NCBI GenBank assembly: GCA_934503195.1
Contig: CAKSVM010000001.1
Span: 27,414 to 91,413, forward strand
Direction: 5' to 3'
Length of the DNA: 64,000 nucleotides
Source: an uncultured Eubacteriales bacterium
Lineage (GTDB): Bacteria; Bacillota; Clostridia; Oscillospirales; CAG-272
Shown here: piece after piece, positions 9,989-40,117 of the stretch
Layout of the letters: each line of letters begins with the position of its first letter
Numbering within the stretch: the first letter of the stretch is position 1
Made by a program: the position numbers and the translations under genes
Notes under the pieces: model-generated
Told to the model about the DNA's origin: nothing
The model's database searches: none
The model's input: the letters and a program-made list of their open reading frames with translations, nothing else

Positions 9989-10948
9989 TCACGCGGCAGA
10001 ATCATCCGCTGACTTCTCCCTCTTCCCGAAAAGATATACTTCTTTCCCGTCCGAGATGAATACAATGTCGCCGATCCGGTCTGTGCGGAGAATCCGCTCG
10101 TCCGGAATCCCGTGCGACCTCAGCCGATCCAACAGCTCGCTGTGCGGATGCGAATACGGATTGTCCCGCCCGCAGGAGATCACCGCCCACTCCGGCTTCA
10201 CCGCGTCGAGAAACGCATCGCTCGTCGAAGTGTATGAACCGTGATGACCTGCCTTCAGCACGTCGCACTTAAGCTCCTCCGGCTGAAAAACCGAAAGAAT
10301 CTTTGCCTCCGAACCCGACTCGGCGTCTCCGGTCAGCATAAACGACGTTTCGCCCCACATGACCTTCATGACAATGCTTCCGTCGTTTCCCGAGGTATCC
10401 TCACCCTCATTCGGCGCGAGTACACGGAAGCTTATCTCTCCGACTCCGTATGTGTCGCCCGGAATCGGCTCGATCAGCTTTATTCCCTTCTCGTCAATCA
10501 CTTCAAGCGCACTCTCAAGATATACCGACGTGGAATCCGATCCGCACATCACAACCGTGCCGATCTTGAAATTCTCCAGAATCCGCCGAGCACCGCCGAT
10601 ATGATCGGCGTGCGGGTGCGTCATCACAAAACAGTCGATCTTCTTTATCCCGAAGGACTTCAGATATAACAGAAGCCTGTACTGCGATTCCTCGGTTCCG
10701 GCGTCGACGAGAATCACATTTTCCTTCGTCCGGATAAGCACCGAATCGCCCTGACCGACGTCTATGAAGTGCGCTTCAAGCTCGCCGTCGGAAATCCCCC
10801 GGAACCGCACCCGGACAAGATCCGCGATCCGCCCGTCAAAAATACACGCGGCAAGCGCGAGCGCGGCTAAAACCAGAATCATCCTGAGCGGCTTTTTGAA
10901 GATCCGCCGTAGCACGCGCTTTATGCTTATGAATGCCTTTCCTATCAT
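9989..10948 (-). CDS. MBL-fold metallo-hydrolase, ComEC/Rec2 C-terminal-domain-like, membrane anchored
   Basis: HFIDVGQGDSVLI and MTHPHADHIGG motifs; N-terminal TM helix. Confidence 0.75.
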   Translation of the reverse strand: MIGKAFISIKRVLRRIFKKPLRMILVLAALALAACIFDGRIADLVRVRFRGISDGELEAHFIDVGQGDSVLIRTKENVILVDAGTEESQYRLLLYLKSFGIKKIDCFVMTHPHADHIGGARRILENFKIGTVVMCGSDSTSVYLESALEVIDEKGIKLIEPIPGDTYGVGEISFRVLAPNEGEDTSGNDGSIVMKVMWGETSFMLTGDAESGSEAKILSVFQPEELKCDVLKAGHHGSYTSTSDAFLDAVKPEWAVISCGRDNPYSHPHSELLDRLRSHGIPDERILRTDRIGDIVFISDGKEVYLFGKREKSADDSAA

Positions 10949-30239: not shown

Positions 30240-30271
30240 CAAAAAAATCTGATTTTTTTTGAAAAACCCCT

Positions 30272-30300
30272 TGACAAACGCTTTGAAATGTGGTATAATA
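30272..30300 (+). promoter_or_regulatory. tRNA promoter (TTGACA -17- TGgTATAAT) with A/T-rich UP-like region
   Basis: Consensus hexamers; about 85% identical over ~65 nt to the promoter at 40018-40081. Confidence 0.75.
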
Positions 30301-30319
30301 TATTCGTTCCAGTGAGAAC

Positions 30320-30394
30320 GGCCTGTTGGTCAAGCGGCTAAGACGTCGCCCTCTCAAGGCGAAAACATGGGTTCGATTCCCGTACGGGTCACCA
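30320..30394 (+). tRNA. tRNA-Glu (anticodon CUC)
   Basis: Cloverleaf folds by hand: acceptor GGCCTGT/ACGGGTC, anticodon loop CTCTCAA, T-loop GGTTCGATTCC, encoded CCA. Confidence 0.9.
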
Positions 30395-30456
30395 CTACCA
30401 GTAGCATCCGAACACTAACGATCCTCACCGATCGCCTGTTCCTGCTCAAAGTCAAA

Positions 30457-30487
30457 AGGACAGACGGATAACCGTCCGTCCTTTTTT
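30457..30487. terminator. bidirectional intrinsic terminator
   Basis: Stem AGGACAGACGG/CCGTCCGTCCT with TTTTTT on + and TTTT on -; lies between the tRNA and the end of the giant gene. Confidence 0.75.
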
Positions 30488-30499
30488 CGTTCTCAACGA

Positions 30500-30856
30500 T
30501 CAGTCAAGCTCCGGCATCCTGATCTCCGGCAGCGAAATCTCCGGAAGTTTCACCTCCGGTAAATCAAACTCCGCAAGCCCGCCTTCGTCCGCCATGATCT
30601 TCCGCACGCCGAGATTGTGCCACGGCGTGTCCGGAAGTCCGCCTTCCCGGTAGAAGCAGCAGTACAGAACGTCCTTCTGCGAGTTTGAAAGCTTAAGGTT
30701 CTGAATCGCGTTCACGACGCCGACCTTTCTGGCCTCGCCCTCGCCGCGGAGATAGACTTCGTACGCGTCAAGATAGTTGTCAAGCCCGATGTTCGCCTCC
30801 TCAAGCGAGTCGAGCTTTTTTTTTCGCGCTCTCGATAGAGTCAGCCGAGCCGAGAA
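30500..30856 (-). other. out-of-frame C-terminal continuation of the giant ORF (frame open 30856->30500, crosses the A9 tract)
   Basis: No ATG or RBS of its own (first start is GTG 30715). The frame is open through the A9 run at 30816-30824. The translated sequence repeats a motif seen just upstream in the giant protein. Confidence 0.6.
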
Positions 30857-33800
30857 TCATCTGCTCGAAGACAACACGCTTCGCGTCAGAGTTGCCATCA
30901 AGCCCTCGGAGATACTTCACCTTGTCCGCCCTTGACGAGTATGTCTTCATCTCCTTCATGCTCTCGTAGGCGTCGCCCTGATCCATACCGCCATCGACCA
31001 GAGCTTCGTACGCCGCCGTCGCTTTTACCGACAGCGAGCCGAATCCGTCGTCAACCCAATCGCGTCCGTACCTGTTGGCCGTCTTTCCGAAGAGTACCGC
31101 CTGCGGCAGCGTCGTCAGAGCGTCACCGACCGTCTTGTTCTCGACCGGATATTGCAGCTTCTTTCCGCCATCGTTGTCCCGCGTGTAGGATCCGCCTTTC
31201 GCGTACGCCGTCACGCCCTCGACCGCCTTCTTGATCTGCCCGCCGCCGAACGGAGGAATGATGTACGCGGCCGGCTTCGCGATCTCCTTGCCTAACATCT
31301 CCGCACGCTTGCTGAGAGCCTTGTCTCCGGTGAGCGCGTTTTTTATATTCCCGAGATCGGGAAGTGCCGACTGAATCGGAATTCGACCGCCGCCCAGAAC
31401 GCCGCCGATGAACGGCATCTCGGACGCGACATTTACCGCGAGATTCGATCCGGCTGCCACAATGCCCTTCCGGTCGGCCTTCACAATCTCACTCCACTTC
31501 TTCTTTCCGAACACAGCGTCGCCGACATCCGCGATTCCTGGCGCCTTGTATCCGGTGAGGTCTCCGGCGAAATCGTTGAATATGTCGATAGGATCGAGCG
31601 CACATCTCCGCCCGACGACAAGCTCGTAAACCTCGTTGTACAGCCAAGCCCCGAGACACATCTTCACGAGCATCTTCACAAGCTCCTTCGCCCACTTCGG
31701 GTCACGCGCTTTCGCTTCCTTCGGCAAATCCTTCAGGATGAACGCCAGCTGATTGTTGACCTCGAGCTGGTACTGTGTGAAGAGCTTCAGAACCGGGTTT
31801 GACGCGTGGAAGATCGTCGGCATGTCGCCCTTCGCGCGGTTCGCCATCAGCTTGTAGGCGAACATATCCGCCTCGCTCATTGCGTCCGACTCGGCGAGTC
31901 CCTTCGCGATGTTCTGCGCGTATCTCGCCCGGACAATCGTCTCAGCCGTGAAGCCGTCGATGATCTCCATCGGTTTCCCGAGCGTCTTCGCGAACTTGTC
32001 CGCCTTCGTCTGTACAAGACTCTCCGAGCCGAATCTGTTCGTCAGGAAGTCGGAACGCTCTCTGAATCCGTCGCTCTGCTTGTAGTTCTTCACCGTGTCC
32101 CACATCGCGTTCAGCAGCTGTTTCTGAGTCAAAACCGAACCCGCCTGAGTCAGCGGTACAAAGTTCGTGAGCCACGATCCCGGGTTCAGTGAAACCTGAT
32201 TCGCCGCGATGCGCTGTTCAAGCTTCTTCATGTTCTGGTACATCGACCGCCCGAGAAGCTGTTCAAACTGCCTGTCAAGAATCGACTTCTTCCCCGCGAT
32301 TATGTTCGTCCACTCCTCGAGGTTCACGACGAAGTTCGACAGCCTGTAATGCTGCTTGTTCTCGAAAAGCTCCGCGATCCGGCTGTCCTGCTCCTGCGGA
32401 GTCAGCGTCGAGTCGGCGCGCAGTGTGTCAATCTGCTTCTTTCGCCCCTCGTCGGTAGTCGAGTACCTGATCGCGTCGGAGAGCGCGCGGAGATTCTGAA
32501 TGTCATCGGTGTGATAGATGACATCCGCCGCGGTCTGAATGTACCGGTCGAAGCCCTCAACCGCTCCGGCCGTCAGCGTGAAGCCGTTGTACATCTCGCC
32601 GACGCCGTAAACCGAACGCTGCTTAACATTCGACATATACTTGATTCCCGGCCGGAAGGTGTGCGTCAGTCCGTTGATTGACGTCGGCAGCACGTCATTG
32701 TCAAGCGATAACCCGAGCCCCGACATCACATTCGCCAGAAGTCCGTCCTGCCCCGACTGATTGTTGAAATGTGGGAAATATCCGGCGTGATACTCGACCG
32801 GAGCGTAGCCCGCGAGTATCCGCGCACGGTTCAGAGCCGAGAAAAGCTCGTCGTAGATCGCGTGGAACCCGGTTATCGCGCGCTCGATCTTCGCCATATC
32901 CATGTTCCGGTTTTCGGCGAGGATCGTGTTCTGAATGTTCTTCCACTCCTCCAGCGTCTTTCCCTCGCGTATCGGCTCGCCGTTCATGTTCTCGGCGTTG
33001 CCGTTGCCGTTTTCGAGCATTTCAATGTTGCTCCGGCACTCGCCGAGAAGCTGAACCATCGCCGACTCCGAGAGCTTGTTTCCGTCCTTCACAGTCATGT
33101 CAAGTCCGAGAGCCTTCACCTTTTCACGCATCGAGGTCATGAATCTCTGCTTCATCGCCTCATGCTCGTGAACAGGTTTTACGTAGTTGTCGATAATCTC
33201 CTTTCCGAGCGCGTCGCCCTTCGAAATGTCCTCGATGTTCCGAACCATCGTGTTGATCGCGTACCCGAACCCCGTGCTCTTGTCCTTCCATGCCATGATG
33301 TCGCCTTTGGCGATCTCAGCGAGTGCCCGGTCGACGCGCACTTTCTTCTGCACCTGATGAACCTTGTTGATGTACGAGTTGATATTGTCGAGCTGCTCAA
33401 ACAGCTTCTTCACCTCAGCTCTGTGGTCTTCCGAAAGCGACTCGATGTCGACGTTCGCGTATTTCGCGCACTCTTCTGAGAGGTCCTTTGCCGTGTCGTG
33501 AAGCTTCATCATCTTCGACTCGAAAGAGCCGTCCTCGATAGCCGCGCTTATCTTGTCGGCTGAGATGTCGCCGCCGCGGTCATGCCGACGCTGTGCCCGA
33601 GCCGCCTTGTCAGCCGCTTCTTTGTCAAGCCGCGCCTTTTCCTTTGACTCGTAGTAATCCGTGACCTCCGCGACGCTCTTGTTCGCCTGGTCAATCGCCG
33701 TGTTCACGCGCGAGTGATAGAACTTCTCATTCTCATCCTTGTAGCGGTTCGCGTCGTCGACGATATTCCTTATTCTGCGCTCCGCGTCGGCCTGATAGTC

Positions 33801-36800
33801 GGCAAGCGTCTTCTCGGCGTCGGCCTGAACTTTCTCGATCTCGGCCTGCATCTCAGAGAGTATTCTGTCAGTTTCCGCCGCGTGTTCTCGCTGCATCTGC
33901 TGGAACGGCTCCACGACAGCTTTGAGAATGAACTTGTCCTCCCAGCTCTTCGGCCGCTGTTCGAGCTTCTGATACCCCTCTGCCAGCTTCACCATCAGAT
34001 CGGCGTGATCTTTTGAATAGACCTTTTCCCACCCCGAAAAATCGTAGTGAGATTTCTTCGCGAAGCTTCTCGCCGAAACCGTCTTCACAACGTCCATCAT
34101 CTGCGCGAACTGATCGGCCTCGTTCTCGATCTCAGCCGGGAAGAGATCCCCGAACTTCGACGAAAGCTCCATGTACCGCACGTCAACCGGAGTACCCTTG
34201 CTCCGGTCGGTGACAAGCGTAATCCGGCTTCCGACCGCCTTCCGGATTTTCGAAAGACTGCCGCCGAAATCCCCGCGCGCCTTGGGCGAAAGGAACATCG
34301 GAGTCTTGAATTCCTTCAGAACCGCGTCGCGCGTCGCGGCGTTGTCAACGTCCTCGACGAATCTGCTGTCCTGAATCTCGGTCGCGATCGCGTCAAGCTC
34401 CTTCGAGATCTCATCATTGCCCCAGATCTCTTTTCCGGCCGACTGTAACTCGCCCATCTTGTCATAAAGCGCGGTGAGCTTCTTCGTGATCGATCTCCGC
34501 TTCGAGTCCGAAATGTCGTCCCCCATGATCTCGCCCGCGAACTTCCGTACGAATTTCGCGTCGGGAGTCATGTTCGGCGAGGTGTGCAGAGCCTTTTCAA
34601 GCGTCTCGCGCGTTTCGGCCTTGCCGCGCTCGTAGGCCGCGTGCATCGCCTCGACGTTAAGCTCGCTGCTCTTCTTCGATTCGAGAATCTCGGCCGCCTG
34701 CTTTTTCAGATCCTCGTTCTCGGCGCGAAGCTTCGTCTCGCTCTCTGACTCGTTATTGCCGAAGAGGTAAATGTCAGCGTAGTGGTCGACGACGAGGTTC
34801 CCGAAGTCGTCCTTGAACCATCCCGTCGTCGTGAAGACATACTCGGGATTCTTGCCGCGCGCGAGCATTTTCAGAGCCTTCTCGCGGTTTATCGCCTCGG
34901 CGGAGTTAAGCGGCTTCGTGCCGTACTGACTGTCGGCGAGGGAATACTGACCGCCCATCCGATGGAACATGGCAATGTCAGATTCACTTCCCGTTCCGCC
35001 TTCAAAATACTGGTGAATGTCGTCAAGGATCTTCGCCGCGCTCGTTCCCGAATCGTACTCCAGACTCTTCACCGTGTTGCCGTTCGCGTCGTCAATATCA
35101 ACTATCACTTCGCCTCTGACTCGGTTAATGTAGCGTCGAAGAGCCGTTTCCTGCTTTCCTGTGGGCAGAGTCGCGAGATTTATGCTGTTCGTTTCAGGTG
35201 CTATCCTGATATTGCCTCTTTGCATGAAATCAACTTTTCCCTCGTATTGATCCCTGTCGTTATAGAGGTTTCCGACTTCCCTGTGGTCAACAACCCTCAT
35301 TCCTTCATCGTATCCCTGATGCTTGCCCGAGAAGTCAAGCTGAGAGCCGTCAGTCAGAAGGTATCCGGTCTTGTTCCAGTCGTAGGTCGTGCCGAAGAAC
35401 TTTTTCGAAGCCTCGGTTATCTCGTCGGTTTTCGCCAGCGAATAGCTTGTTTTGCCCGAATTTTCCTTCGCGGAGGTATTGACATTTTCGCCGGAGCGTG
35501 ATATAATATTATTGTCAGCAGACGTGAAGTTGCTGTTGGACACGGTTTTACCCGGGGTCTGGCTAGTAACGTCTGCTGATTTTTTGTTTATGTTTGCCGA
35601 GGAGAAATTTATAATATCATACAGAACGATTTTTCCGGAGCGGGTATACCCGAACACAGAATTAGCCGTGTAATCCCTTCCGCCTATGCTGATATTGACT
35701 TTACCTCTCGCGAACTGAACTATGTTGTCCTTTCGTTCATGATTCAGCGACTCATTCACATAGTCTCTCGTCGCCTTGATCACCTCGTCGGCTTTTGTAA
35801 GTACATTCAGCCGATCCGGGAATACCATGTCGCCATCGTTATTATAACCATTGCGAACATATCTGGCATATCTCGAATTCAGACTTTCACGAACGCTCGG
35901 ATTATTCTTTATCTCAATCTCGCTGTTCCCGAGCTTGACACTGACAAGCGGTATCTGAGCCTTGACGGTTTCGACCCATTTGTCTCTCGGCACGCCCTCC
36001 AGCACATCCCGGTCGATCTCAACATAAGGTGTGTTGCTCTTGTCGTATTTTATCGACATCCGGCTCTCGCCCTCTCCGAAGTCCCTTTTCGTCTTCCTGA
36101 GTGCCGCTGCGAACCTGTCTCTGAGGTCTTCAACCTGCCTTAATGCGAGCTGAGCGTTCCGCGCGTCAAGATTCAGCCGGTCGCGGTCGTACTGCCATCT
36201 CGCCTTGAAATCCTCCGCGAGCCTTTTCGCGCCCTGCGTCAGCCGATGCCAGAATCTCGTCGCGGCGTTCCGGTTCTGCCTTGCGAAATTCTCAATAGCC
36301 GCGTCGTCACTGAACATCGACTGCGCGACCTTAGCCAGCGTCTCGTTCTCACAGTCAGCGTCGGTAAACTCCTGTCCCATGTTGTCGTAGCGAACCTCGT
36401 ACTCGGCGCGTACCTGCTCTTTGAGCGCGTTCCAGTTTCCGCCCTTGTCCGAGATCGAACGTTTCAGAAGTCCGACAACCGACTCGTATTCGCTCGTCCC
36501 TTCGAGCGAATGCGTGAACTCATGCGCGAGAATCGTCCCGACGTTGTCCGTGCCCTTCGGATTCACATAAATCGTCCCGTTTGCGAACTTGCCGTTGACA
36601 TTCGCCTCGGTCGAGTCGAAGATGATATTTCTCCCGAAGACTTTCGAGAGCGTCTGAGCCGTCCTTATCTGCGAGTCGGTCGCTCCCGCGAGCCGTCCTG
36701 AGCGTTCAATGTCATCGTTCGACGCTTTCGCGCGTCTGATGCGGTTCTCCTGCTCGGCAGTCCTCAGAATGAAGTGCCCGTTTTTGTCGAACTGCTCGTC

Positions 36801-38504
36801 CTTCGGATTCACGATCGGCTCGGTCGCCTGTTCCGCTGTCTGCTCAGTCTGCGCTTTTTGTTCAATCGGCGCGGTCTGCGCGTTCTCAGCCGCCGTCGCG
36901 GTCTGTCCGGTCTGCCCGGGAGTCGTGTTGACCTGTGTCTGTTTTCCGGCAATCCTCGACGCGAGGTTCTCGGCATCGGGATTCACAAGTGCCCGACCTA
37001 TCTCCCCACGCTTGTGCCACGCCTCGCCCGCTCCGGTCATGACCGCGCCGGAAAGCGCACCGCCCGCGAAAGACACTAACGGATTCGTTACATAAAACTG
37101 CTTGAACGCCGTCCGGCAAGCCTCTTCATAATCCATACCGCCCTCGACAAGCTCGCGGGCGTATTTTTTCATCTCGGACTCGTCGCCCATGATCGACCCA
37201 TTCGCGATGTTGTTCACGTACTCGGTGATAAGCTCCTCGAGACCTTCCTCGGCAGCCGAACCGGCGACCGCTCCGAGACTCTGCCCGAGACTCGACTTCA
37301 TGGCGTTCCCGAGGAATCCCGCGATAGCCTTTTTCTCGCCGCCCTTGAACGCCGCTGCGACGTTCTCAAACGGAATCTTCTCCGAAGCGTATTCCGCGAT
37401 TCCGGCAATAGTTCCGAGCTTCAGCGCCTGATCGGTCGAGCCGCCGTTCCGCTTCACCTCATTCGCCGTCTTTCCGGCCGCGCCGGAAGCCATTACGACG
37501 AGTCCGGCCGCACCGAGCGGAATTCTCGAAAGAAACTGCGCCGTCGAAAGCCCGGTGTCCGCGAGGAACTTCCCGAAGGTCGGAAGATCTCCTGTCAGTC
37601 CCTCCTGCATTGCCGAAGCGTTCAGCATTCCGCGGTTCATTCCCGAGTAGGGATCGTTCGGCTTTCCGATGATCTTCGACCCGACGCTCGAAGCGAACGC
37701 CAGCGGCGTGGTGTAGGTGTCAAGCGTGAGCTGTGCCAGTCCCGCCCCGATCGTCCCGGCGGCTCCCGAGTCGCGCATCTTTCGCGTGTCGGCCATGGAC
37801 TTCTCCATTTCCCTCTCGGCCGTGCGTCTGTTGACCTCTGACGAGATCGATTCGAGATACCGCTTCGCGGCGTGAGGACTCTTCTCATACCAGTACGAGT
37901 AGGTTTTCAACTCCTCCGGAGTCATGTCCGAAGCGTTGACCCCGCTCATGTACTGAATTCCGGTCTGCGTGCGAAGACCGGAATCGTTGTTTGCCATCTG
38001 CTCAGAGAGCGTCGGCGCGAAGGTCGCGTAACCGTCCGCAATTCCGTTCATGAGATCGGCGTTATTGGAAAGTTGTCTCTGCCTCTGCCGCTGAATCGGG
38101 TTTGATTTTTCCTCATATCCGGCCGCCGCCGTCGAACCGAAATGCGGATCCCCCGCCGCCAGCCTCTCGCCGACGTCCCGGATTCCGGCCTGTCCGGTGC
38201 TGTAGGCCGAATCCCGCAGCCTCCCGGCAGCTGTCCTCTGCGCCTTCTGACGCTCGCGGACTTCCTTCCGCACCTCAGTTTCAAGCCGTCCCGACTCGGC
38301 GCGGCGGCCTTCTCCATAAAGTTCGACCGCCCTGTTCTGCTTCGCGAGTTCTTCAGCCGTCTTTCTCGCCGCCTGATAGTCGTTCCTCTCGGCCGCGGCT
38401 TTCAGCCTCATCGCCTTCGTCTGCGCCCCGCCGTCGATCTCCTCGCGCCTCACCAGCAAACCGAGGATTTTCATCCTCGGTTTTTCTTTGTTTTCATACC
38501 ACAC
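30801..38504 (-). CDS. giant multi-module protein (2,567 aa) with HExxH zincin motif; polyvalent-protein-like
   Basis: Single uninterrupted 7.7-kb ORF. HEFTH at aa 661-665 (nt 36510-36524), Gly/Ala-rich hydrophobic blocks, Q/T linker, long E/K/A-rich tracts. True start uncertain (GTG 38504, ATG 38474 or ATG 38411). Confidence 0.85.
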   Translation of the reverse strand: MWYENKEKPRMKILGLLVRREEIDGGAQTKAMRLKAAAERNDYQAARKTAEELAKQNRAVELYGEGRRAESGRLETEVRKEVRERQKAQRTAAGRLRDSAYSTGQAGIRDVGERLAAGDPHFGSTAAAGYEEKSNPIQRQRQRQLSNNADLMNGIADGYATFAPTLSEQMANNDSGLRTQTGIQYMSGVNASDMTPEELKTYSYWYEKSPHAAKRYLESISSEVNRRTAEREMEKSMADTRKMRDSGAAGTIGAGLAQLTLDTYTTPLAFASSVGSKIIGKPNDPYSGMNRGMLNASAMQEGLTGDLPTFGKFLADTGLSTAQFLSRIPLGAAGLVVMASGAAGKTANEVKRNGGSTDQALKLGTIAGIAEYASEKIPFENVAAAFKGGEKKAIAGFLGNAMKSSLGQSLGAVAGSAAEEGLEELITEYVNNIANGSIMGDESEMKKYARELVEGGMDYEEACRTAFKQFYVTNPLVSFAGGALSGAVMTGAGEAWHKRGEIGRALVNPDAENLASRIAGKQTQVNTTPGQTGQTATAAENAQTAPIEQKAQTEQTAEQATEPIVNPKDEQFDKNGHFILRTAEQENRIRRAKASNDDIERSGRLAGATDSQIRTAQTLSKVFGRNIIFDSTEANVNGKFANGTIYVNPKGTDNVGTILAHEFTHSLEGTSEYESVVGLLKRSISDKGGNWNALKEQVRAEYEVRYDNMGQEFTDADCENETLAKVAQSMFSDDAAIENFARQNRNAATRFWHRLTQGAKRLAEDFKARWQYDRDRLNLDARNAQLALRQVEDLRDRFAAALRKTKRDFGEGESRMSIKYDKSNTPYVEIDRDVLEGVPRDKWVETVKAQIPLVSVKLGNSEIEIKNNPSVRESLNSRYARYVRNGYNNDGDMVFPDRLNVLTKADEVIKATRDYVNESLNHERKDNIVQFARGKVNISIGGRDYTANSVFGYTRSGKIVLYDIINFSSANINKKSADVTSQTPGKTVSNSNFTSADNNIISRSGENVNTSAKENSGKTSYSLAKTDEITEASKKFFGTTYDWNKTGYLLTDGSQLDFSGKHQGYDEGMRVVDHREVGNLYNDRDQYEGKVDFMQRGNIRIAPETNSINLATLPTGKQETALRRYINRVRGEVIVDIDDANGNTVKSLEYDSGTSAAKILDDIHQYFEGGTGSESDIAMFHRMGGQYSLADSQYGTKPLNSAEAINREKALKMLARGKNPEYVFTTTGWFKDDFGNLVVDHYADIYLFGNNESESETKLRAENEDLKKQAAEILESKKSSELNVEAMHAAYERGKAETRETLEKALHTSPNMTPDAKFVRKFAGEIMGDDISDSKRRSITKKLTALYDKMGELQSAGKEIWGNDEISKELDAIATEIQDSRFVEDVDNAATRDAVLKEFKTPMFLSPKARGDFGGSLSKIRKAVGSRITLVTDRSKGTPVDVRYMELSSKFGDLFPAEIENEADQFAQMMDVVKTVSARSFAKKSHYDFSGWEKVYSKDHADLMVKLAEGYQKLEQRPKSWEDKFILKAVVEPFQQMQREHAAETDRILSEMQAEIEKVQADAEKTLADYQADAERRIRNIVDDANRYKDENEKFYHSRVNTAIDQANKSVAEVTDYYESKEKARLDKEAADKAARAQRRHDRGGDISADKISAAIEDGSFESKMMKLHDTAKDLSEECAKYANVDIESLSEDHRAEVKKLFEQLDNINSYINKVHQVQKKVRVDRALAEIAKGDIMAWKDKSTGFGYAINTMVRNIEDISKGDALGKEIIDNYVKPVHEHEAMKQRFMTSMREKVKALGLDMTVKDGNKLSESAMVQLLGECRSNIEMLENGNGNAENMNGEPIREGKTLEEWKNIQNTILAENRNMDMAKIERAITGFHAIYDELFSALNRARILAGYAPVEYHAGYFPHFNNQSGQDGLLANVMSGLGLSLDNDVLPTSINGLTHTFRPGIKYMSNVKQRSVYGVGEMYNGFTLTAGAVEGFDRYIQTAADVIYHTDDIQNLRALSDAIRYSTTDEGRKKQIDTLRADSTLTPQEQDSRIAELFENKQHYRLSNFVVNLEEWTNIIAGKKSILDRQFEQLLGRSMYQNMKKLEQRIAANQVSLNPGSWLTNFVPLTQAGSVLTQKQLLNAMWDTVKNYKQSDGFRERSDFLTNRFGSESLVQTKADKFAKTLGKPMEIIDGFTAETIVRARYAQNIAKGLAESDAMSEADMFAYKLMANRAKGDMPTIFHASNPVLKLFTQYQLEVNNQLAFILKDLPKEAKARDPKWAKELVKMLVKMCLGAWLYNEVYELVVGRRCALDPIDIFNDFAGDLTGYKAPGIADVGDAVFGKKKWSEIVKADRKGIVAAGSNLAVNVASEMPFIGGVLGGGRIPIQSALPDLGNIKNALTGDKALSKRAEMLGKEIAKPAAYIIPPFGGGQIKKAVEGVTAYAKGGSYTRDNDGGKKLQYPVENKTVGDALTTLPQAVLFGKTANRYGRDWVDDGFGSLSVKATAAYEALVDGGMDQGDAYESMKEMKTYSSRADKVKYLRGLDGNSDAKRVVFEQMILGSADSIESAKKKARLA
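38450..38494 (+). repeat. tRNA 3'-end-like TCACCA plus terminator hairpin; near-copy of the tRNA-Glu(UUC) 3' end and terminator at 40287-40327
   Basis: TCACCAGCAAACCGAGGATTTTCATCCTCGGTTTTTCTTTGTTTT versus TCACCACGAACCGAGGAGATTTTCTCCTCGGTTTTCGTTTT. Confidence 0.6.
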
Positions 38505-39142: not shown

Positions 39143-39718
39143 CTACGACCGTGCGGCCGAACGCTTCATAAGATGCGCCTTCTCAAAGACGCCCGACTTC
39201 ACGAGAATCCAGACAACCGCCGTGTCGATGATCCAAGTCACCGCGAACTGAACCGATCTCGTCGCGAGCTTCGTCAAAAAGAAGCTCGTGAACGCCTCTC
39301 CGCCGTAGACAAACGCCAAGGCGAAGCTCTGGTAAAGCACCGAACCGAGGACTACCGACGGCAGGAACGCGAGCCCGATCCGGAACACGGTCGGCTTCGC
39401 GCGGACAAAATCACCCAGGAGCCCCGCGATAAGTCCGTACATTATCGGCGGAACGCAGAAGATCGGATTGAATCCGTAGCCTGAGATGAGCGCGCCGATG
39501 AAATCGGCCGCCGCGCCGACCAGCGCACCCGGAACCGGTCCGAACAGCATCCCCGCGAGGAAATACGGCACGGCCTCGATCGAGTATCTCGTCGTGACGT
39601 TCGGCATCGGAAGCCGGGCTATGACGACCGACAGCGCGACGAAGATCGCGCAGGATGTCAGCACCCTGACCGCCATCGGATGACGTTTTTCGCTTTGTGA
39701 ATCGTTTTGTTTTTGCAT
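39143..39718 (-). CDS. folT: ECF transporter S component, folate family
   Basis: About 190-aa 5-6 TM protein (LAGMLFGPVPGALVGAAADFIGALISGYGFNP); ATG 39718 preceded by GGAGG; THF riboswitch immediately upstream. Confidence 0.75.
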   Translation of the reverse strand: MQKQNDSQSEKRHPMAVRVLTSCAIFVALSVVIARLPMPNVTTRYSIEAVPYFLAGMLFGPVPGALVGAAADFIGALISGYGFNPIFCVPPIMYGLIAGLLGDFVRAKPTVFRIGLAFLPSVVLGSVLYQSFALAFVYGGEAFTSFFLTKLATRSVQFAVTWIIDTAVVWILVKSGVFEKAHLMKRSAARS

Positions 39719-39793
39719 AAAAATACCTCCTTGAAAGCGGCATTCCGTTGATTGCCACATACAGGGAGGCGAAAAAAACTCCGTATATGAAAG

Positions 39794-39888
39794 CAGCGGG
39801 ATGCGATCCTGATACCGCGGAAAGAATCCTTCGTTCCCATGACAACTCCCCGTCCATGAGACACTTTACGCATCGGGATCTACTCTGT
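39794..39888 (-). promoter_or_regulatory. THF (tetrahydrofolate) riboswitch aptamer
   Basis: Minus strand AGAGUAGAUCCCGAUGCGUAAAGUGU...GGGGAGUUGUCAUGGGAACGAAGG...CCGCGGUAUCAGGAUCGCAUCCCGCUG matches the conserved THF-I core (AGAGUAG, GCGUnAAGUGU, AACGAAG, CGCGGU, GCAUCC). GCCUCC downstream can pair with the folT SD. Confidence 0.8.
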
Positions 39889-39913
39889 GTCGATGTTTTT
39901 TACCGACAACGAT

Positions 39914-39942: not shown

Positions 39943-40047
39943 GCCGCAAAAGGCAAAAACATTCACCGCGCAAAGGTTCCTCGGCTGTACATTATGACAA
40001 ATCGGCGGGAAAGCAAAAAAAATCGCGGATTTTTTTCAAAAACCCCT

Positions 40048-40075
40048 TGACAAACGCCCCGAAATGTGATATAAT
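40048..40075 (+). promoter_or_regulatory. tRNA operon promoter (TTGACA -16- TGaTATAAT)
   Basis: Consensus hexamers; paralogue of the 30272-30300 promoter. Confidence 0.75.
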
Positions 40076-40117
40076 ATTCAAGCACGATGATTGAAGCAGA
40101 TCCGAGTGCGAAACAAT

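Follow-up and report, generated by a model that had tools for sequence, protein, structure and literature searches.

The stretch analyzed here (the window: the whole 64,000 nucleotides (nt) at positions 27,414-91,413 of contig CAKSVM010000001.1, from an uncultured Eubacteriales bacterium, with positions counted from the first letter) carries a giant open reading frame (ORF) on its minus strand. Comparison with phage genomes indicated that this ORF is in all likelihood the last remnant of a deleted prophage, namely a copy of a polyvalent-protein gene that was damaged at both ends and is now a silent relic. We put the probability of this reading at roughly 85%. The remnant corresponds to one part of a phage genome. 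It lies between an attachment-site (att) junction at a host tRNA gene and a breakpoint internal to the phage, and it carries disabling lesions. A preliminary description had presented the gene as an orphan and offered three origins, a relic, a domesticated effector or the sole cargo of an unusual insertion. The gene did lack mobile-element neighbors, but it was one end of a ~43-kb prophage rather than an independent unit. The relic proved to be the right choice, whereas the sole-cargo insertion failed on the att junction and the breakpoint.

The single giant ORF of the preliminary description was borne out, with the following extent:

30801..38504, minus strand: giant ORF of 2,567 codons from a GTG at 38504; the phage-derived part is 30804-38447

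An alternative ATG at 38474 gives a product of 2,557 aa, which is the one annotated by gene callers in public assemblies. Codons 1-19 of the giant ORF come from junction DNA and not from the phage. In a blastn comparison, window positions 30391-38447 showed 90.5% nucleotide identity to positions 18277-10274 of a parent-phage sequence (L001), and to nowhere else in the phage. The closest relative of the window protein was a phage protein of 2,722 aa with 91% identity (P0002), found on an ENA contig of 46,201 bp and on the IMG/VR contig UViG_3300013947_000065 of 43,258 bp. Protein searches returned about 57 full-length relatives of 2,270-2,910 aa, many of them on 42-46-kb contigs. When every parent-phage protein was compared with the window by tblastn, the matches were limited to the giant gene, its frameshifted tail and 26 codons of an integrase.

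The gene order of the parent phage revealed why these pieces lie together. At the P0002 locus, a GH25 lysin, a Gp58-like fiber, three small genes, a 521-aa gene and a 612-aa gene precede the giant gene. Right after it, on the opposite strand, lies a large serine integrase (Resolvase, Recombinase and Zn_ribbon_recom domains), and beyond the integrase follow helix-turn-helix repressors, small early genes, PcfJ and a replication initiator. The giant gene is thus the final late gene of the phage and adjoins attP and the integrase, so that it would lie at the prophage end next to the tRNA once the phage had integrated.

The boundary on the tRNA side was an att junction. Neither this flank nor the 5' truncation of the giant gene appeared in the preliminary description. 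The features at this end were:

30320..30394, plus strand: host tRNA-Glu(CTC) (ARAGORN; Rfam tRNA, 60.7 bits), whose 3' end ACCA is the prophage integration site
30391..30405, no strand: att junction between host tRNA body and phage DNA (blastn and manual alignment)
30391..30468, plus strand: integrase remnant, the last 26 codons (tblastn, 88% identity to integrase aa 518-543)
30458..30481, no strand: phage-derived bidirectional terminator hairpin downstream of the giant gene (terminator scan), kept in L001

The phage homology crossed the terminator of the giant gene and ended in the ACCA of tRNA-Glu(CTC). The junction in the window read ...GGATGCTACTGGTAGTGGT|GACCCGTACGGG, and the phage attP read ...GGATGCTACTGGGAATGGT|CCACCATTTC, with the palindrome AATGGT-CC-ACCATT. 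Serine-integrase attP sites are expected to have such a palindromic core. The integrase ORF of the parent phage read across this core (L001 18197-18277). Integration must therefore replace the last ~26 codons of the integrase, and those are the codons that survived beside the tRNA in the window.

At the other end, the phage homology stopped inside the giant gene:

38447..38448, no strand: deletion breakpoint (blastn: window 38447 corresponds to L001 10274, the L001 gene starting at 10001)
38450..38483, plus strand: TCACCA, GC and then a terminator with an 11-bp stem and a T-run (terminator scan 38458-38483, starting with AAA)

The end of the homology corresponds to approximately codon 91-92 in the intact gene. 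At the protein level, the match began at residue 89, with aa 89-2618 of P0002 aligning to aa 7-2553 of the window protein (P0001). About 88 N-terminal codons and ~35 kb of phage were missing from the window. The six bases TCACCA at this junction also form the 3' end of tRNA-Glu. From this arrangement we infer that 38450-38483 is original host DNA that once lay downstream of the tRNA, in other words the right flank of attB. If the segment is read in this way, the deletion ended a few bases from the other att junction. The loss also affected the start of the gene. Both candidate start codons lie within the junction DNA, in the terminator hairpin (the ATG at 38474 sits in its loop), and lack proper ribosome-binding-site spacing. 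A promoter scan found no minus-strand promoter-like site between the giant ORF and the upstream gene for an energy-coupling factor (ECF) transporter component, which is itself terminated.

The third lesion was found in the tail of the gene:

30816..30824, minus strand: A9 homopolymer with a +1 insertion (alignment with L001 and a second phage sequence, L006), giving a premature stop at 30801-30803
30506..30823, minus strand: frameshifted C-terminal tail of 106 aa, 95% identical to P0002 aa 2616-2721 (tblastn and translation)

Intact phage copies carry an interrupted run of 8 nt at this site, either AAAGAAAA or AGCGACAA. Alignment of GCG-A9-GCTC in the window with GCGAAAGAAAA-GCTC in L001 and GCGAGCGACAA-GCTC in L006 identified the change as a +1 insertion, which removes the last ~101 aa of the protein. 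Deleting one A from the run linked the giant ORF to 101 more codons, ending at about 30503. The length range of 2,567 to ~2,668 aa given in the preliminary description was therefore real, with the A9 run just before the stop as its cause. Within the frameshifted tail, gene callers annotate an ORF of 71 aa.

Junctions of this kind might also result from the misjoining of phage and host contigs, with the frameshift being a homopolymer sequencing error. The metagenomic source of the window and the break of contig k141_178734 inside the gene in one assembly would fit such an artifact. However, the 5' junction was also present in two further ENA assemblies, ERZ28614312 and ERZ27286918, which came from different samples and, judging from the contig naming, apparently from different assemblers. 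These were 99.995% and 100% identical to the window over the shared DNA. The tRNA-side junction and the A9 run were likewise repeated in ERZ28614312. Moreover, the 3' junction lies exactly at the tRNA 3' end, opposite the palindromic attP core, which a chimera would not yield. The recurrence in other assemblies makes a chimera, or a mere sequencing error in the homopolymer, extremely unlikely. As a separate observation, the relic contig of ERZ27286918 stopped inside the giant gene, at about window position 34112, which would be expected if co-occurring phage copies confuse the assembler.

The junctions suggest the following course of events. A ~43-kb temperate phage of gut Clostridia would have integrated at the 3' end of tRNA-Glu(CTC) by means of its large serine integrase. 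A later deletion may then have removed the prophage from roughly codon 90 of the giant gene onward, taking with it the genes for the virion, replication and lysogeny as well as the integrase. The leftover of this process would be 8 kb, made up of the gene, now lacking its first ~88 codons and its promoter, together with its terminator and the 26 integrase codons. The +1 insertion in the A-run would afterwards have removed the last ~101 aa. Thus, the orphan status of the giant gene can be explained by ordinary prophage decay that was caught very early.

To see what had been left behind, it is helpful to consider the family of the intact protein. Pairwise comparisons divided P0002 into a conserved N-terminal region (1 to ~870), a variable center (~870-1242) and a conserved C-terminal region (1242-2721). 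The corresponding parts of the window protein were:

37020..37772, minus strand: Gly/Ala-rich amphipathic block, aa 245-495 (phrog_22978, E=3.8e-16), conserved in the family
36090..36767, minus strand: zincin-like metallopeptidase region, aa ~580-805, with HEFTHSLE at aa 661-668 (nt 36501-36524)
35601..36059, minus strand: cargo module 1, aa 816-968, weakly LPD3-like and of low AlphaFold2 (AF2) confidence
34995..35444, minus strand: cargo module 2, aa 1021-1170, GYLLTDGSQLDFSGKH...VDHREV, a shuffled module with an AF2 predicted local distance difference test (pLDDT) score of 60-82
34785..34928, minus strand: LPD23 domain, aa ~1193-1240, holding TTGWFKDDFGNLV (PF18838, a marginal 27.5 bits against a cutoff of 27)
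33405..34784, minus strand: E/K/A/D-rich, helical, coiled-coil-like region, aa ~1241-1700 (from composition), conserved in close homologs
30804..33407, minus strand: C-terminal all-alpha module, aa 1700-2567 (AF2 pLDDT 74, predicted template modeling score 0.71), the most widely shared part of the family

All motifs quoted in the preliminary description were found at the residues given there: GAAGTIGAGLAQLTL at 247, IPLGAAGLVVMASGAAG at 328, HEFTH at 661, GYLLTDGSQLDFSGKH at 1047, VDHREV at 1072, TTGWFKDDFGNLV at 1226, PFIGGVLGGGRIPIQ at 2364 and IIPPFGGGQIKK at 2415. Its compositional blocks also matched (A/G-rich, aa 245-495; T/A/Q-rich, 525-565; S/N/T-rich, 969-1020). A transmembrane-rich channel protein was considered and rejected, as a Kyte-Doolittle scan gave a single moderately hydrophobic 19-mer at aa 324-343.

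The zincin motif was present and invariant in the family, but no zincin fold was matched in Pfam or the PDB. HExxH occurred in 57/57 close homologs at the same place, in the form HExxHxxE, and H92, E93, H96 and E99 of the region were invariant or nearly so. The AF2 pLDDT of the region was ~80. A Foldseek search of the PDB with a model of the zincin and cargo parts together gave a best E of 0.2, a weak negative given that the model was multi-domain and module 1 was of low confidence.

The center of the protein held most of the variation. Modules 1 and 2 occurred independently, in different but overlapping subsets of homologs. LPD3 (PF18798) scored 18.4 bits with the whole protein and 22.7 bits (E=1.2e-4) with isolated module 1, both below the 27-bit gathering threshold, and some homologs carried precomputed LPD3 matches. 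The GYLLTDGSQLDFSGKH...VDHREV module had been said to resemble polyvalent-protein domains; this was not supported, since no Pfam LPD or PBECR family matched it. Pfam searches at E<=5 with isolated segments, which lay outside the LPD23 region, gave only the sub-threshold LPD3 and a weak DUF6055. The LPD23 domain was found in nearly all family members, sometimes twice, with scores of 48.8-102.7 bits in the homologs. The central cargo of the homologs was PBECR3, GNAT, Zeta toxin, ART-PolyVal or a DUF6782 metallopeptidase.

The C-terminal half was more uniform. The coiled-coil-like region gave chance-level matches only, to apolipoprotein and myosin coiled coils. The C-terminal core (~1800-2640 of P0002) shared 26-28% identity with many other giant proteins. 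Among 1.84 billion cluster representatives searched (clusters at 50% identity), 2,479 matched the C-terminal module at E<=1e-3, and 1,584 at E<=1e-30. Among 150 listed of the 2,479, the module was nearly always C-terminal in proteins of about 970-3,900 aa. It retained many invariant polar residues, such as R56, R88, E123, H213 and D378/R379. BFVD gave 107 matches to the C-terminal model at E<=1e-3. The top 50 of these were mostly split pieces of giant phage proteins; about one third of the 50 were named PolyVal ART, LPD3, nuclease, MuF-C, methylase or N-acetyltransferase, and most of the others had no name. The module had no Pfam or NCBIfam match, and single-sequence and family-profile searches of the PDB found no meaningful match. 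With ~2,500 clusters and no Pfam, NCBIfam or PDB counterpart, this ~850-aa helical module is a candidate new domain family. It would also suit a test of the idea of giant ejection proteins in phages of Gram-positive hosts.

At the family level, the polyvalent interpretation of the preliminary description was upheld. LPD23 stood just above the cutoff in the window protein, PBECR3 was found in homologs, HExxH was invariant, the cargo was variable, and the orthologs were encoded by phages. On the basis of sequence comparisons, we infer that the 2,722-aa protein, when intact, belongs to the phage-type polyvalent proteins and consists of a conserved N- and C-terminal chassis and interchangeable central effector modules. 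By analogy, it may travel inside the capsid of a virion, probably a short-tailed one, and enter the host by ejection together with the phage DNA. Packaging and ejection would be the task of the chassis, as they are for the terminal regions of N4 gp50. The cargo might then act in host take-over or counter-defense early in infection, possibly after self-cleavage by the zincin.

Several observations weigh against the deleted-prophage reading, in part or in whole. For CCTC at 38448-38451, no source was apparent in the phage sequence, in the predicted attR or in the predicted attB. The empty site reconstructed as attB reads ...TTCGATTCCCGTACGGGTCACCAGCAAACCGAGGATTTTCATCCTCGGTTTTT..., and an exact pattern for it (tRNA-Glu 3' end, 0-30 nt, hairpin) was unmatched in the genome and metagenome contig collections. 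Neither an empty site nor a full prophage was found at this locus. The host species was absent from the genome and metagenome collections, and the best identity to the host Amidase_6 protein encoded in the window was 73%, in the uncultured Clostridiales UMGS874 and in Ca. Flemingiibacterium. In these relatives, the synteny and the tRNA were not conserved, so the comparison of relatives gave no presence/absence contrast. With no empty site, an absent host and lost synteny, the deletion was deduced from one clone. As to the protein, the zincin-like region had no significant PDB fold match and, in Pfam, nothing beyond a weak DUF6055 at the motif (E=0.006), and the model of the C-terminal module had no significant PDB match either (Foldseek, best E 0.6). 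Finally, a 7.7-kb ORF free of stop codons is equally consistent with continued selection.

The last point was examined through the substitutions. With L006 as the outgroup, the window branch carried 114 synonymous and 29 non-synonymous single-base changes (dN/dS ~0.07), and the L001 branch carried 219 and 48, respectively (dN/dS ~0.06). Since the dN/dS of the window branch was like that of the phage branch, almost all of the divergence predates the decay. The low dN/dS and the absence of internal stops further indicate that the decay was very recent, although a dN/dS of 0.07 fits continued selection equally well, and identical copies cannot separate the two. The relic is known from one clone. 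An exact-protein look-up of Amidase_6 returned the same clone only, and thus there was no polymorphism for a selection test.

The host might have kept the truncated protein under selection, for example against incoming phages or competitors. A weak or unrecognized promoter would then drive the gene, and transcriptional or ribosomal slippage at the A9 run would restore the C-terminus in some molecules. Tracts of the A9 type can permit slippage, and the ORF has stayed intact over 2,567 codons. Hosts have also been suggested to capture polyvalent proteins against invaders (PMC5512222). However, the coding strand had no promoter-like site upstream, the start codons were trapped in the terminator hairpin, the ~88 lost N-terminal residues are conserved, and the C-terminus was frameshifted. 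Moreover, the copies at 100% and 99.995% identity represent one clone, with no sign of retention across lineages, and recency explains the low dN/dS equally well. Nothing indicated domestication, which is thus very improbable. In a related scenario, the relic would still be alive and would help the host clone in defense or competition, for instance when relatives of the parent phage superinfect it, with low or conditional expression and A9 slippage as a switch. This we consider very unlikely.

The window copy as a prophage relic most likely does nothing, given that it has no promoter, has lost its conserved N-terminus and is frameshifted at its C-terminus; it would be a silent pseudogene too young to have gathered stop codons. 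The giant gene should consequently be annotated as a pseudogene or remnant, and not as a host effector.

The nature of the parent element was clear from its genes. PHROG searches on the reassembled 43-kb parent-phage genome identified TerL (phrog_3717, 1e-65), portal (phrog_156, 2.5e-52) and the major head protein (phrog_371, 2e-26). Collagen-like and Gp58-like fibers were also present, the former found through PHROG, and the 521-aa neighbor of the giant gene matched phrog_511 "internal virion protein" at 7e-61. The order of GH25, fiber, ~520-aa gene (phrog_511), ~610-640-aa gene, giant gene and opposite-strand integrase was retained around a homolog of 41% identity. Homologs of the giant protein were accordingly located among capsid, terminase and integrase genes, which supports the mobile origin considered in the preliminary description. 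In two distant homologs, P0100 (1,824 aa) and P0058 (3,322 aa), the giant gene was the last before host-type genes, and each was preceded by a ~480-520-aa gene, as in the parent phage. Upstream of P0100 were P22_portal, capsid, amidase and holin genes. The P0058 contig begins 2.2 kb upstream of the gene, and the visible neighbors were short ones only. A convergent tRNA follows the P0058 gene, with the tRNA 3' end lying 230 bp from the end of the gene, which is the same geometry as in the window.

An integrative and conjugative element was considered as the origin on account of PcfJ and Peptidase_M23 matches, and was ruled out by the terminase, portal and head genes. The parent element had no relaxase, type IV secretion system or coupling protein; the sole conjugation-flavored match was the PcfJ-like domain of the early region. 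No cultured relative was found in INPHARED, where tblastn of the ortholog against 50,697 phage records gave 3 unrelated or uncultured matches. The giant protein and its 521-aa neighbor matched unannotated human-fecal "Bacteriophage sp." fragments, and another match was a methyltransferase-annotated stretch of a Rhodobacteraceae phage. NCBIfam gave no matches for the giant protein or its two upstream neighbors. An uncultured lineage of ~43-kb temperate gut-Clostridia phages encodes proteins of 2,400-2,900 aa that combine a fixed chassis with swappable cargo.

The gene content also bears on the type of virion. A long, helical protein that is rich in coiled coils and has Gly-rich hydrophobic patches and a peptidase motif resembles many tape measure proteins, and some of the BFVD relatives are labeled "Siphoviridae" or "Myoviridae". 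The giant protein might thus be the tape measure of a long-tailed phage. Such taxon labels of metagenomic viruses are unreliable, however. Searches of Pfam and PHROGs found no tape measure, tube, sheath or chaperone match in the giant protein or in the ~19 other parent-phage proteins scanned (structural, late and a few early ones). The gene follows the lysin and fibers at the end of the late operon, and does not lie between chaperones and distal tail proteins, and its center carries swappable enzymatic cargo (ART, Zeta toxin, GNAT, PBECR3). Together with the "internal virion protein" as a neighbor and the P22-type portal in a distant relative, this makes a tape measure highly improbable. The same absence of tape-measure, tube and sheath families, the same neighbor and the P22_portal suggest that the parent phage is short-tailed.

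Two further features were seen in these phages. One parent-phage variant (L001 1-1269) carried a reverse transcriptase (RVT_1) beside a DUF6273/Hoc-like head-decoration protein, which is probably part of a diversity-generating retroelement. A related 43-kb phage from the same samples (L111/L112 19298-21028) carried a gene for a 509-576-aa trypsin-like protease beside the integrase, a position at which the parent phage has a small gene of no assigned function.

Polyvalent proteins were defined by Iyer, Burroughs, Anand, de Souza and Aravind (2017, J Bacteriol; PMC5512222), who predicted that they are packaged, injected and processed by the zincin. The family described here resembles them in several respects. 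It consists of giant single polypeptides with LPD23, weakly LPD3, and a conserved zincin-type HExxH; the homologs carry PBECR3, ART-PolyVal, GNAT and Zeta toxin, and the orthologs lie among the virion genes of a phage with portal and terminase. In contrast to those proteins, no MuF, portal or DarA-N fusion was detected in this family, and ~60% of the protein (the N-terminal block, module 2, the coiled coil and the ~850-aa C-terminal module) had no Pfam family. A share of polyvalent proteins resides in host genomes without a mobile-element context, which has been attributed to capture from prophages or integrated elements (PMC5512222). The window copy, chromosomal and without mobile-element neighbors, corresponds to this third genomic context. 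Here, however, the junctions themselves record how a phage gene became an "orphan", providing a junction-level example of how polyvalent proteins come to lack a mobile-element context.

The packaged-and-ejected model has an experimental counterpart in gp47 of the Stx phage phi24B, a 2,811-aa polyvalent protein that was detected in podovirus virions by proteomics, is absent from the ordered virion structure, and was proposed to be an ejection protein (bioRxiv 10.64898/2026.04.10.717836). The two proteins are alike in size, in combining LPD domains with a metallopeptidase, and in belonging to a temperate phage, ours being probably short-tailed. They differ in that tblastn of the ortholog detected no sequence similarity, and in that gp47 has LPD1, 5, 38 and a MuF-C peptidase and comes from a phage with a Gram-negative host. 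For the packaged-and-ejected model, gp47 is nonetheless the best experimental analog.

A likeness to the ejection proteins of podoviruses (T7 gp14/15/16, P22 gp7/20/16 and the virion RNA polymerase N4 gp50) was also evident. Three consecutive late genes (~520 aa, ~610 aa and the giant gene) are present, the first of which is the PHROG "internal virion protein", and helices dominate the conserved regions. A similar combination is seen in N4 gp50, in which a central enzyme and a zincin are joined to terminal regions that serve injection and encapsidation. However, the giant protein had no sequence or fold match to any solved ejection protein (best PDB Foldseek E 0.6; cyanophage A4 pre-ejectosome, only E=1.0), and the host is a Gram-positive-type Clostridia bacterium.

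The remnant itself shares the marks of cryptic tRNA-gene prophage remnants: the att junction lies at the 3' end of a tRNA, the phage gene is truncated and frameshifted, and the integrase and all other phage genes have been lost. It differs from the usual ones in that the parent integrase is a large serine recombinase whose ORF spans attP, and in that a single, nearly full-length ORF of 7.7 kb was left. Targeting of tRNA genes is more typical of tyrosine integrases.

The surroundings of the giant gene were those of a host chromosome. Over ~1-57 kb of the window, the range with precomputed Pfam annotation of the called genes, the claimed absence of nearby mobile-element genes held. Only host-type genes were present there, including Tex, ribosomal protein L19, SpoVG, Mur ligase, sigma-70, aconitase, GalT, GH43/95/127, AraC regulators, Amidase_6 and the ECF S-component. 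The last of these (ORF 39143-39718, minus strand) is probably a folate transporter (FolT), because a tetrahydrofolate riboswitch (RF01831, 80 bits; 39792-39889, minus strand) precedes it. This FolT-like gene had a promoter-like site at 39942-39914 and a terminator at 39122-39103. A segment of 62 nt with ~85% identity was found upstream of both the tRNA-Glu(CTC) locus (30241-30301) and the tRNA-Met/tRNA-Glu(TTC) locus (40016-40077). Both copies hold the same perfect sigma-70 promoter (TTGACA-17-TATAAT, with an extended -10 TG), at 30271-30299 and 40047-40075, respectively.

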